From assembly GCA_951406725.2 (NCBI GenBank), contig OX597828.1:67022001-67086000 (forward strand): a DNA stretch of 64,000 nt. Reading direction: 5' to 3'. How positions within the stretch are numbered: position 1 is the stretch's first letter; the number at the start of each line of letters is the position of its first letter. Of this stretch, positions 13,486 to 54,902 are shown in pieces. The notes beneath the pieces were generated by a model. The model saw only the letters and a program-made list of their open reading frames with translations. It was not told the origin of the DNA and ran no database searches. The stretch comes from Octopus vulgaris (lineage: Eukaryota). The position numbers and the translations under genes are program-made.

Positions 13486-13612
13486 ATCTTACAGTTGTTT
13501 CGGCCATGTAGATAAGCATGTCCCATTCAACTCATATTACCCATTTATGGTAGGTCAATATGTAGTTATAAATGAGACATTTACAAAAACATCCTAAGGC
13601 CTCTTCGGAGAT
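13486..13612 (-). ncRNA. Type I hammerhead ribozyme (U4C core variant, 100-nt stem II)
   Basis: Minus strand: stem I atct/agat, CCGAAGA, stem II ggcc...ggcc with long internal hairpin, GAAA, caactg, GUA site. Confidence 0.7.
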
Positions 13613-13710
13613 TACAAATTAGATTACATATATACTTATAAAGGTGTGGGTATATACCCATAATAAAACATATACATATATATATATATATATATATATA
13701 TATATATATA

Positions 13711-13793
13711 GTTAAAGTTAATCCAAACAAGAAAACACAAAAAAACACAACAACGCGGGGACGTGGAACAAATATAGTATTATTGGACGCTCA
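13711..13793 (-). mobile_element. Family P1 3'-end fragment between (TA)n tracts
   Basis: Reverse complement of ~12265-12350. Confidence 0.6.
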
Positions 13794-14017
13794 TATATAT
13801 ATATATATATATATATATATATATATATATATATATATATATATATATATATATATATATATATATATGGGTGGGAAGGGGCTGGTGACACAAACTTTCA
13901 TTCACACTTTGAATTTGGTGATACTGGTAACGGCTTTTAGCTCGCTCTGATACTGAGTTGAGATGATGCCTTCTAGTATCTCGAAATTTAATATACAATT
14001 ATTCATAATTGTAGTGT

Positions 14018-14108
14018 CCTACGCTGATGAGAAAAGAAGTTGGGTAAGATATAATTATCTAATTCTTATGCTTTCCTAAAACTTAATTTCGAAACGTACG
14101 TCCGTAGG
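14018..14108 (+). ncRNA. Type I hammerhead ribozyme (canonical core, 60-nt stem II)
   Basis: Stem I cctacg/cgtagg, CTGATGA at 14024-14030, stem II gaaa...tttc, GAAA at 14091, palindromic cgtacg stem III, GUC site; inside a ~430-bp element (13869-14302) bounded by (TA)n. Confidence 0.88.
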
Positions 14109-14372
14109 TGACTTAAAATTGTATGATATATTGCCGTCATTTCATTCTCACTTACCTGTCTGTGTTTGCCATTCAAGTGCTGTGTTTTTACTGAGATCTC
14201 CCTTTTAGTAGAAAGAATAGCTATAACTCTTTGACTGCTATTTCTAAATTCGGTGTGTGGTGAGGCAATTCGTTGCTAAACCCTTAATTGCTTAGTATTA
14301 CTATATATATATATATATATATATATATATATATATATATATATATATATATATATATATATATATATATAT

Positions 14373-14561
14373 ACCGGAGTAAACACATAAATGTGAAACA
14401 AGGTGGAAAAAGAGTACTCAAATACCAGTGGTAGAGTAATATGCTTTATTTAAAGCAGCAGAGAAAATTCAACAAAACCTGTTACTCTGAGTTTCCCGTT
14501 GCCCGGGAAACTCAGAGTAACAGGTTTTGTTGAATTTTCTGCTGCTTTAAATAAAGTATAT
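14373..14561. mobile_element. PLE-terminus-like fold-back containing only the 3' half of a hammerhead
   Basis: Arms 14439-14498 and 14504-14561, loop ttgcc; the right arm reads cgg-GAAA-ctcagag-TA-acag. Confidence 0.75.
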
Positions 14562-14674
14562 ATATATATATATATAACGGGAAGCTTTATGAAAATAGAC
14601 AAAAGACGAAGGCAGGTGGAAAACAAACAAACAATTGTATTAGTATGGCGCTCAGGAAATATAAATAAAACAAG

Positions 14675-14712
14675 TCTTTAACGTTTCGAGCCTACGCTCT
14701 TCAACAGAAAGA
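14675..14712 (-). ncRNA. Minimal hammerhead-like motif with A6U core change
   Basis: tcttt-CTGTTGA-a-gagc gtag gctc-GAAA-cg-TT-aaaga on the minus strand. Confidence 0.55.
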
Positions 14713-15102
14713 TACACAGAGAAAAAAAACACAGAAAGAAGGAGAGAAAAAATGCGTGCAGTAACTAACGAATCAACATGGCGATCTGATTTCGGCCAGA
14801 AGTCAAAGATCAAACATGAGACGCGGGAGCGAAATTAGGGGAGATAATAGGGTTGAATAAACTACTCCAACATAAGGGTGTGTGTGTGTGTATGAGAGAG
14901 TATTAGTGCGTATGAGAGGTCTGGACGTGTGTATGTATAGGGTTGGTGTATGTATTAGTATGTATTAGTATGTATAAGGGTGTGTGTGTGTGTATGAGAG
15001 AGTATTAGTGCGTATGAGAGGTCTGGACGTGTGTATGTATAGGGTTGGTGTATGTATTAGTATATATTAGTATGTATTAGTATGTGTTAGTTGGTGTATG
15101 TA

Positions 15103-52556: not shown

Positions 52557-53062
52557 TTTATTATTATTATTATTATTATTATTATTATTATTATTATTAT
52601 TATTATTATTATTATTGTTGTTGTTGTTGTTGTTATTATTATTATTATTATTATTATCCAATAAATAAGCAATATCGAACCATTAGCTCAGAAGGAATTC
52701 TTTAGATTTTTATGTCTAGATATTAATAAATTATGAATGCATAATATACGATCAGACAATTTAATCAGAGGTTATTTACCATAAGTTAATGATTATTGAA
52801 CAAATAAACAATTATGCCATTAAATAATTAAATAAAGAAGTGTGTATAGATATCGATTTATCAATAAATATGTATATGATAAAACAATCAGACCATTCTA
52901 TGTGAATAATAATGTGCGTTATTTTTTAGTGAAAATTATTGAACCTTTAAATCAGCAGAAACCTGATTTATATTTCTTCTGTTTTGGTAATTTACATATT
53001 TGTCATATTTCGTTTTGGGATTTGGTTTGCAAGATTCTTTATATGAGTTCGTGTGTTGAAGC

Positions 53063-53300
53063 ATATTCTGTTGTGTCTGGGGAGAGTCATTTTCTTTTTG
53101 TGCCTTATAATGTAACACACTCACCGGTAAAATTTCTACTTTTTTCTTATTTTTATTTTCCAAAAATTTTCGTTGCGTCTTGCAACCTTTTCAATAGAGT
53201 CAAAACTACTGAAAGGGTTGCAAGACACAACGAAAATTTTAGGTAAATAAAAATAAGGCCCAAAAAGAAAATGATTCTCCCCAGACACAACAGAACATAT
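53063..53300. repeat. Diverged fold-back inverted repeat
   Basis: Outer arms ttctgttgtgtctggggaga / tctccccagacacaacagaa; inner arms aaaattttcgttgcgtcttgcaacc / ggttgcaagacacaacgaaaatttt. Confidence 0.8.
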
Positions 53301-53587
53301 TTGTCAGTTTTCTTCTCAATAACTGATGAGAGAGTAGTTTGTCACGACTCTTTCCTTATTGCTTTCCTCTCCATCGTCTCAGAGAGAGAGCGAGGTTGGA
53401 TAACAGAAAAAGAAGTAGGTGTGTGAAAGTGGGAGCAGAATACAGTTTGAGAGAAAGAAAAAGGGAATTGATGAGTACTCTATCATATTATTTTAATATT
53501 TTCTATTCAACTAATGGCGATGTTTCGTTTTGACTTGCACAAATGTCATTTGATCCAAGCTGGTTGTTCGTTAATTCCCGTAAAATT

Positions 53588-54320
53588 TATTTATTTATTT
53601 ACATTTGTTTTCATGACCTGTGGAAGGCGACATTTGCTTTGAAGTGAGAGCAGAAAATGAAAAACAGGAGAAAATGAAAGGTGTATGTACATGTATATGA
53701 AATGGACGTGTGTAAGTGTATGTGTGTGTGTGTGTGTGTGTGAGAGAGAGAAAGAGAGAAAGGGAGAGAGGGAGAGAGAGAGTGAGTGAAGGTGTGTCAT
53801 GTATTTTTTGTATGTATGTGTAAGTGGCACTCACTCTCTTTCTCTCTCACACTCACATTATCTTTCATATACACGTACATACATAAATACATATGTATAC
53901 ATCTCTTTGTGTGCGCGCGTGTGTGTGTGAGAGAAAAAGTGAATGAAGGTGTGTGTTCTCATGTATGTACAAGTGGCCCTCGCTCACTCTTTCTCTCTCT
54001 CTCAGACACGTACATACATACAAAAAAGATGCATGCAACTCGCAAACACACATGTGTATTGTTTTGTATTAATGTCTAAGTGGCACTCACTCGTTCTCCC
54101 TCTTTCTCTCTTTCTCACACACGCGCACCTATACATACATACATACATACTTACATGCATACATACATACATACATACATACATACATACATACAAAAAG
54201 ACGTATACATCTCTCACTCTCTCACGTCCATTTCATATACACATGCATCTTTCACTTTCTGCTCTCACTTCAAAGAAAATGTCACCTTCCACAGGTCATG
54301 AAAGCAGAAGTAAATAAATA
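53588..54320. mobile_element. ~730-bp MITE/fold-back element with ~110-bp imperfect TIRs
   Basis: tttcatgacctgtggaagg...gaagtgagagcagaaa...atatgaaatggacgtg is mirrored at 54223-54320; internal motif aagtggc(a/c)ctc(a/g)ctc occurs three times. Confidence 0.75.
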
Positions 54321-54432
54321 TTTCAACTGCAAAAGGGCAAATACGCTGCAGTTAATGTGGAGAATAACTCTCTCTTGTGGTAAAAATAAGTGTGAAAACA
54401 CTCGGTTCGTTCAGTGTCGCCATCTATTAGGA

Positions 54433-54479
54433 ATCCCAGACATCGCAGTTTCAAGTTAATTGGCCTTCGTAAATGAGAT
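54433..54479 (-). ncRNA. Degenerate hammerhead
   Basis: atctca-TTTACGA-aggccaattaactt-GAAA-ctgcgatg-TC-tgggat. Confidence 0.45.
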
Positions 54480-54771
54480 GTGCCTAAGGGAAGCAACTCT
54501 GAACGAACTTATAAAGCCGTAGCTTTATGTATAATTCAGTCAACACGTTGACTGATTTGCGTTAGTAGATCGCCCGACCGAGGTGAATATGAAGTGTCAG
54601 CACTAAGCAGTAACTATGAGCAGAATTAGGTAAGTTCAAATATGTTTGTTACATATTTAAGCTGCTAAAAGGCAAATATATTGTTGTTAACGCAGCGAAT
54701 AAATCTCTCTTATGGTAAAAAAAAAAAGGTGTGAAAGCACCTGGTTCGTTCAGTGTCGCCATCTATTAGGA

Positions 54772-54818
54772 ATCCCAGACATCGATGTTTCAAGTTACTT
54801 GGCTCTCGTCAATGAGAT
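54772..54818 (-). ncRNA. Type I hammerhead (C3U variant)
   Basis: atctca-TTGACGA-gagccaagtaactt-GAAA-catcgatg-TC-tgggat. Confidence 0.7.
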
Positions 54819-54855
54819 GTATTTAAGAGAAGCAACTCTGAACAAACTTAGGTGC

Positions 54856-54902
54856 ATCTCATCGACGAGAGCCAAGTAGCTTGAAACATCGATGTCTGGG
54901 AT
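54856..54902 (+). ncRNA. Type I hammerhead (C3U/U4C variant)
   Basis: atctca-TCGACGA-gagc caagta gctt-GAAA-catcgatg-TC-tgggat. Confidence 0.7.

Follow-up and report, generated by a model that had tools for sequence, protein, structure and literature searches.

Predicted long-arm hammerheads in Hydra-clade Penelope-like elements and non-coding tandem repeats of the Octopus vulgaris genome

We analyzed a 64,000-nt stretch of the Octopus vulgaris genome (GenBank assembly GCA_951406725.2, contig OX597828.1, forward-strand positions 67,022,001 to 67,086,000; hereafter the window, numbered from its first nucleotide), which holds a series of type I hammerhead motifs in several of which stem II is drawn out into an arm of tens of nucleotides. 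The window is 36.5% GC with many microsatellites. A preliminary description had placed nine hammerheads here, with about seven different flanking sequences; all nine are present at the coordinates and on the strands it gave, and they fall into seven repeat families (A to G), with 16366 and 19007 forming one inverted pair and 54772 and 54856 a head-to-head pair. Its count proves too low, as three further motifs (61433, 14675 and 19197) are present. These sites, together with a coding piece and a whole insertion of Penelope-like elements (PLEs), are given below (ORF, open reading frame; RT, reverse transcriptase; UTR, untranslated region).

13486..13612, minus strand: type I hammerhead of family A with core CCGAAGA and a stem II of 100 nt
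14018..14108, plus strand: hammerhead of family B with a canonical core, a stem II of 60 nt, a palindromic stem III and a GUC site
14675..14712, minus strand: short hammerhead variant, core CTGTTGA, 13-nt stem II, GUU site; absent from the preliminary description
15388..16236, minus strand: 5′-truncated PLE ORF piece with RT thumb, Cys linker and GIY-YIG
16280..19075, no strand assigned: whole family C insertion, two inverted 3′-UTR arms of a very young Hydra PLE
16366..16416, minus strand: family C hammerhead, left arm, 12-nt stem II, U-U at its base, GUA site
19007..19057, plus strand: family C hammerhead, right arm, inverted partner of 16366
19197..19234, minus strand: second short variant, core CTGTCGA, 13-nt stem II; absent from the preliminary description
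24801..24889, plus strand: family D hammerhead, canonical core, 58-nt stem II, U-U base, palindromic stem III
32119..32204, minus strand: hammerhead of family E at the 3′ end of a Hydra PLE, with a stem II of 55 nt
32762..32825, minus strand: hammerhead of family F at the 3′ end of a Hydra PLE, with a stem II of 39 nt, a stem I of only 3 bp and a palindromic stem III
54772..54818, minus strand: family G hammerhead-like motif, core TTGACGA (U3 opposite G8), 14-nt stem II
54856..54902, plus strand: family G hammerhead-like motif, core TCGACGA (U3 opposite G8), inverted partner
61433..61540, plus strand: hammerhead of family H with a canonical core, a stem II of 69 nt and a palindromic stem III; absent from the preliminary description

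All nine sites had been called complete, a term that fits five of them (14018, 16366, 19007, 24801 and 32762), in which the core is canonical and stem III closes; six of the nine, and 61433, have the CUGANGA and GAAA boxes together with a UH site. Stem I is open-ended and comprises 3–8 bp, stem II at least three basal pairs, and stem III is closed, the exception being a mismatch at 32119. The other four depart in different ways. At 13486 the core carries U4C, a family-wide state (30/36 family A copies), and the stem III sequence CAACTG is a private change from the CAGCTG of 34/36 copies. Stem III of 32119 reads CATGTA, privately breaking its C–G pair; the CATGTG ascribed to this site is that of the family (35/38 family E copies) and of the adjacent inverted arm, a partial one at 32290–32397(+). 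The two family G motifs have U3 with G8, the majority state of the family being U3 with A8; C3 was seen in none of the 26 readable copies among 33 extracted (some extracted twice), so that no C3–G8 pair was found there. A third, decayed family G copy lies at ~54348–54488(−), and the U3–A8 variant (TTGAAAA) also occurs in two metagenome Hydra loci (L205, L232). Stem III had been described as minimal and palindromic or nearly so, which does not hold for 16366 and 19007, where it has 3 bp plus an 8-nt loop. The five extended stem II regions, put at 39–100 nt, do measure 100, 60, 58, 55 and 39 nt between the core boxes (13486, 14018, 24801, 32119 and 32762, respectively).

Our type I descriptor specifies a near-canonical first core box, a stem II region of at most 200 nt with at least 3 basal pairs, GAAA, a C...G stem III, UH, and a stem I of at least 3 bp. 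It yields 10 matches in the window (seven of the nine sites first listed, and the three extra ones), relative to none in each of 20 block-wise dinucleotide shuffles; an Rfam scan of the whole window at the gathering threshold returned no hammerhead match. The relaxed stem II limit also picks up long-arm motifs elsewhere: 60 evenly spaced 10-kb stretches of the genome (600 kb) give 15 matches, nine with a stem II of at least 30 nt, against 0–2 in each of 10 shuffles of this sample. Scaled to the 2.8-Gb genome, this would mean some tens of thousands of motifs that look intact. The 60 kb flanking the window holds 3 matches, and the density in the window is ~6 times the sampled genome mean (10 per 64 kb versus 15 per 600 kb). 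The motifs are genome-wide, and the density that had been read as the sign of a diverse self-cleaving set is local clustering in a locus which is itself ordinary repeat debris; nesting in TA repeats, together with inverted pairs, could explain the cluster.

Candidates of lower quality were also encountered. The loosest descriptor matched CTGACGA at 35198, 48017, 51394 and 52260, all from one repeat family and with only two stem II pairs, and these were rejected; the repeat (present also at 36309) adjoins (AAT)n arrays and a LINE-like (long interspersed nuclear element) ORF piece at 35583–36074, and its GAAA is distant and its stems weak. At ~6000 and 12350–13240, a repeat with a CTGAAGA box and a hairpin (6007+, 12487−, 13234−) has GAAT instead of GAAA and was set aside as no standard hammerhead, and 61080–61130(+) holds a half hammerhead (a stem before GAAA, palindromic CGATCG, GUC) without a recognizable upstream core box. 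Two long-spacer matches of the random sample, L183 (195 nt) and L173, look like chance. The short motifs at 14675–14712(−) and 19197–19234(−) belong, with loci L026, L153, L165 and L179, to two abundant families in which stem III has 2 nt and the core is altered (CTGTYGA; CCGAYGA), each with 16 matches in the fetched DNA; 14675 lies 681 nt downstream of a non-Hydra, putatively Neptune-like PLE endonuclease fragment.

The carriers of the long-arm motifs can be identified from what lies upstream. Families A, C, E and F are found downstream of ORFs with a Hydra-type endonuclease (EN). Family C has an intact 718-aa ORF with RWR, DKT, CxCX5C, CxxC and CxH, 2.4–3.3 kb upstream of the ribozyme (its long copies, L381, L383 and L384, have a low-complexity 3′ UTR of 2.4–3.3 kb). 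In family E, RT (DKT present) and EN lie in two frames of one copy (L186), 600 nt upstream and with an inverted arm, and EN is upstream in 14/41 copies. Family F has an EN with CxCX5C 2012 nt upstream in 1/35 copies (L191), and the same EN type precedes the family A ribozyme by ~2 kb in 10 of the 14 loci found with far-upstream sequence; for A and F the fetched sequence covers thumb, linker and EN part, with the RWK/DKT region outside it. The linker CxCX5C, with no CCHH, is carried by A, C and F; family E and a further family, J, keep CxxC and CxH without the linker cysteines. Copies of these two families still end in (TA)n. Long Asn-rich insertions separate RT thumb and endonuclease in several octopus Hydra ORFs (L186, L187, L466). 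The RT from one family matches an Octopus sinensis protein at 97% over a third of its length. Because Pfam gave no RT match and one sub-threshold GIY-YIG match, we assign families A, C, E and F to the Hydra clade by motif; a first guess, Nematis, was dropped in view of the Hydra motifs as defined in PMC8557442. The general attribution to PLEs and retrozymes made in the preliminary description can thus be sharpened to 3′ ends of Hydra-clade PLEs and non-coding tandem units.

Within the window, 13486 sits inside a 5′-truncated 3′-end fragment (~13262–13668) of such a Hydra-clade element. The ORF piece at 15388..16236(−) is separate from the flanking Hydra families and, going by its motifs, we take it to be Neptune-like. 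A non-Hydra PLE RT fragment, interrupted by TA repeats, lies at 5143–5985(−).

Copies of these families share a characteristic architecture. A first look gave 2148 (A), 2221 (B), 938 (C), 2609 (D), 1906 (E), 788 (F), 697 (G) and 2091 (H) sequences, which are search candidates and not copy numbers (40 were scored per family). The best copies are 100% identical in C, 98–99% in B, 90–94% in D and 82–91% in G, D being an older family and G an old one. The shared length is variable upstream, indicating 5′ truncation, and stops at fixed points downstream of the cut site. There are two such 3′ ends per family, each followed by (TA)n, at ~235/410 nt after the cut site in A, 200/295 in B, 20/90 in C, 60/215 in E, 135/210–225 in F and 130–146/235 in H; the two ends are spaced by ~70–175 nt (families A, B, C, E, F, H and J). 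Families A–F and H end in TA repeats; this insertion pattern is not evident for family G. Inverted second arms are frequent, as at 32829–32942(+), where a ribozyme-less inverted family F arm is found; in family H inverted pairs the two arms usually end at different 3′ sites. The motif-bearing insertions are the 3′ ends of 5′-truncated copies, mostly in (TA)n, and most copies in the window are inert relics. Family C stands apart in age: the arms at 16366 and 19007 are 243 nt long, inverted and 100% identical, the low-complexity DNA between them is the element's own 3′ UTR, and 40/40 scored copies are identical over 223 nt. It is a very young Hydra PLE that may still be active.

Families B and H are of a different kind. 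The window copy at 14018 lies in a 434-nt piece (13869–14302) of a 583-nt non-coding tandem unit that covers all 20 family B loci, with 10 head-to-tail units in one of them (L141) at a spacing of 581–592 nt; a seemingly fixed 5′ end of this family was an artefact of the query. Likewise, 61433 is part of a 481-nt non-coding tandem unit covering the family H matches in 30 loci, several of which have two-ribozyme copies. Neither family has an ORF, and at the DNA level both B and H have the organization that defines non-LTR (long terminal repeat) retrozymes. Head-to-tail arrays are also seen with an intact Hydra ORF of 717 aa (L382:1990–4143, contig C3, ~37.229–37.239 Mb; units of ~2590 nt), in whose hammerhead the core is CCGAAGA and stem II measures 31 nt.

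We next consider how far the long arm sets these hammerheads apart. In all the DNA fetched from this genome, 364 matches resolve into 38 sequence clusters; a CTGANGA or CCGANGA core is combined with a stem II region of 29–100 nt in 23 of them (the doubtful L173 remained among the 23). For comparison, a set of 78 metagenome Hydra loci contains 46 distinct hammerheads (in 41 of the loci), all with a stem II of 10–25 nt; with the strict descriptor the remaining 37 loci gave none. Where the region downstream of the ORF was checked (57 loci), 27 have a hammerhead and 13 of the other 30 end within 250 nt. Long-spacer matches in a relaxed scan of this set fell mostly within ORFs or antisense, had weak stems and were discarded as chance. 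The 26 Hydra rows in File S2 of PMC8557442, counted by hand, range from 12 to 26 nt (24 nt in Hydra-1_Obim). In this octopus, the one cephalopod genome scanned, the arm is thus roughly two- to fourfold the length seen in the Hydra relatives compared (metagenome contigs and the published rows). The elements are extended elsewhere too, with an ORF-to-ribozyme distance of 0.2–3.3 kb here versus 80–525 nt in the 27 metagenome loci. Surveys with short stem II limits (one published relaxed search allows 7–17 nt between the core boxes; PMC8557442), taken with the failure of Rfam to find any of these motifs, indicate that animal hammerheads are undercounted.

Arm length varies between close relatives, families with 12-, 31-, 39-, 55- and 100-nt arms being closely related and two of them having intact ORFs; such a series allows the role of PLE hammerheads (dimer or protein need) to be addressed. 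EN trees were built from 44 rows and from 24 (every second metagenome row, with P0004 dropped); they hold Hydra-like EN domains only, with no reference Neptune, Nematis or Penelope rows, and came with long-branch warnings. In the 24-row tree, A, E, J and F, the four long-arm families with a known EN, group to one side of a branch (91/87 and not starred, among long branches), the short-arm family C and the 717-aa family with its 31-nt arm lying outside it, a topology compatible with one origin of the long arm.

The arm itself tends to fold. Its inner part (the arm minus five outer bases on each side) folds better than flanks of the same length, with a mean z of −1.57 (n=23) versus −0.01 (n=45; p=5e-5). 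When seven related sequences (from E, J and three single finds) are compared, both partners have changed in 2 of 10 basal stem II pairs, and pairing holds in 88.6% of cells; the related families E, J, L293 and L451 share an arm of similar length (53–55 nt) with compensatory pairs. This basal covariation is a modest signal.

Stem III suggests how such RNAs might cut. It is a perfect palindrome in 16 of the 23 long-stem clusters and in 12 of the 46 metagenome hammerheads (the descriptor does not demand a palindrome), which lends support to the earlier suggestion of cleavage as dimers; PLE hammerheads with a short palindromic helix III are described in PMC4209133 as cutting weakly, as dimers. We consider it probable that truncated Hydra PLEs, and tandem repeats that likely borrow the same enzymes, carry the motifs at their 3′ ends as type I hammerhead folds, which would cut mainly as dimers or aided by the element's own protein. 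Target-primed reverse transcription would start at either of two sites behind the ribozyme (two starts have been demonstrated for an Anolis PLE; PMC11167929), and since copying starts behind it, even short, truncated insertions would keep the ribozyme. New copies would nest in TA repeats left by older ones, giving a local cluster. A tandem precursor RNA, with units of 583, 481 or ~2590 nt, would bring two ribozymes together, which would swap their palindromic stem III strands and release unit-length RNA. The long stem II, on this account, would be an expansion of loop II, unneeded for loop–loop contact in PLE hammerheads and kept folded back; given no evident loop–loop contact in these ribozymes, the loop could be free to grow as long as it folds back. 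That the arm is mostly passive, a tolerated expansion kept as a hairpin, is the view we lean toward, and the enlarged 3′ UTRs and tails of the same elements favor general expansion over a dedicated role.

A number of observations weigh against this account in one part or another. Families B and H are tied to Hydra enzymes by insertion pattern only, and no ORF is linked to D or G in the fetched flanks (D does share the U-U stem II base of published Hydra hammerheads). Truncation points show no significant excess at the cut site: of 84 arms, 8 have their 5′ end between −3 and +8 relative to it (p=0.13), a proportion that becomes 8/57 (p=0.019) only after dropping 27 ends at breaks of the reference copy. 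When nine window monomers were left to fold freely, the lowest-energy structure was in no case the full hammerhead; a z below −2 is attained by just 8 of the 23 inner arms, and folding is weak in B, D and F. The covariation rests on about five families, its score being reached by 6/500 shuffles (a lenient control), and among substitutions in seven families those shared by at least three copies keep pairing in 7/10 cases relative to 29/80 private ones (p=0.045). The youngest family, C, has a short arm, and a long arm is hence not needed for mobility. Finally, splice-donor-like words occur in 10/23 sense arms (shuffle mean 5.1, with 1/500 shuffles as high) and in 5 antisense arms; a purely passive arm does not predict this enrichment. 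What points to cleavage here is sequence and predicted fold.

The donor-like words, which leave a splicing or regulatory role open, include one in family B (window position 14044) and occur in 13 other-family arms. A pyrimidine tract and AG follow ~135 nt downstream of the family B word, and an intron between them would remove the cut site. In sequencing-run contigs covering family B (three runs presumed to be RNA and one other), the sole A>G in stem II is also in the fourth run, and no junction in these contigs starts at the donor-like word. One may ask whether the long stem II is a working module, binding the Hydra RT-EN or a host factor or serving as a 5′ splice site, and so switching between uncut template or mRNA and cut unit RNA. 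The better-than-flank folding, the 53–55-nt arm kept with compensatory pairs, the grouping of A, E, J and F in the tree and the sense-arm donor words would all fit, as would two precedents: an Anolis PLE hammerhead needs its own protein to cut (PMC11167929), and in a Drosophila PLE the hammerhead marks the end of an intron (PMC4209133). Set against these, most clusters have arms unrelated in sequence and length, the loops occupy no evident common position, and some active families have a short arm (C); the donor words were chosen after some examples had been seen, two of the 10 clusters are related, a donor plus YAG inside the arm is found in only 3/23 (shuffle mean 1.4), and the tree carries its long-branch warnings. 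We hold such a module to be possible, if unlikely. Its bolder form, in which a cephalopod Hydra radiation turned stem II into a regulatory arm where a splice donor or RT-EN binding decides cutting, is doubtful; it would, if true, provide a natural switchable hammerhead in tens of thousands of copies, missed by Rfam.

The poor folding of monomers in silico, the U4C of family A (shared by the intact 717-aa family) and the missing C3 of family G could instead mean that the long-arm motifs no longer cut, a decayed fold being copied along just upstream of the reverse-transcription start; hammerhead mutants had no effect on insertion of the Anolis PLE in vitro (PMC11167929). Core boxes, the GUH triplet, stem I and the palindromic stem III are nevertheless kept across 23 clusters with unrelated flanks, and neutral decay would not preserve cores and stems in this way, which makes loss of cutting quite improbable. 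A third possibility is that the arms are maintained as double-stranded RNA substrates for ADAR or Dicer. RNA editing is heavy in cephalopods, and the A and H arms do hold interrupted helices of ~14–25 bp; most arms, however, are short interrupted helices, and the inverted insertion arms (243 nt, 100% complementary) would be far better substrates, and we give this explanation very little credence. Relative to these, a tolerated expansion in hammerheads that would act as dimers or with protein remains the account we prefer.

The preliminary description had called the set largely unannotated, and this needs division: the Hydra clade of C-terminal EN+ PLEs and its hammerheads, including one Octopus family (Hydra-1_Obim), are published (Craig et al, 2021, PMC8557442), and what appears new here is the long arm in animal PLE hammerheads. 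We found no paper describing such an arm, although subscription papers and several supplements outside the search (those of PMC4209133, PMC7229834 and bioRxiv 10.64898/2026.07.22.740005) could hold examples. As in the Hydra clade of PMC8557442, the octopus elements have RWK-like, DKT, CxCX5C, CxxC and CxH motifs, (TA)n targeting, an inverted 5′-truncated arm and a tail, and a type I hammerhead close to the 3′ terminus, in which the base of stem II is often U-U. They differ in a 3′ UTR of up to 3.3 kb (published elements are "generally short (<3 kb)"), in tails of ~70–175 nt in place of 30–40 bp, and in a stem III that is mostly an even-length perfect palindrome.

With the minimal and small-helix-III hammerheads of metazoan PLEs of Cervera and De la Pena (2014, PMC4209133) they share the type I form, a palindromic stem III fit for dimers, many families per genome, mostly solo or inverted copies, and U3 core variants; helix II there has 6–8 bp, relative to as many as ~33 predicted pairs in 100 nt here. 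Families B and H resemble the non-LTR retrozymes of PMC7229834 in being ORF-less head-to-tail units with one type I hammerhead each. Their units (583 and 481 nt) exceed the 170–400 nt of those retrozymes and fall within the 51–972 bp given by Li, Clavereau and Pollet (2026, bioRxiv 10.64898/2026.07.22.740005), who propose an origin of retrozymes from PLE pseudo-LTRs; they differ from retrozymes, which are expressed as linear and circular monomer RNA, in their long stem II and in being known here at the DNA level. For the long arm itself the precedent is thin, consisting of the spike-moss PLE-X1 hammerheads, which likewise have a long stem II region (53 nt in PLE-X1_sMoe; PMC8557442 File S2), and the Naiad "HHR_half_core", half cores set 35–50 nt apart in eight Naiads (PMC8557442). 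Those belong to plant EN-minus or N-terminal-EN clades and were flagged as deviating single cases, whereas in the octopus the long arm marks a multi-family radiation with closed stems I–III.

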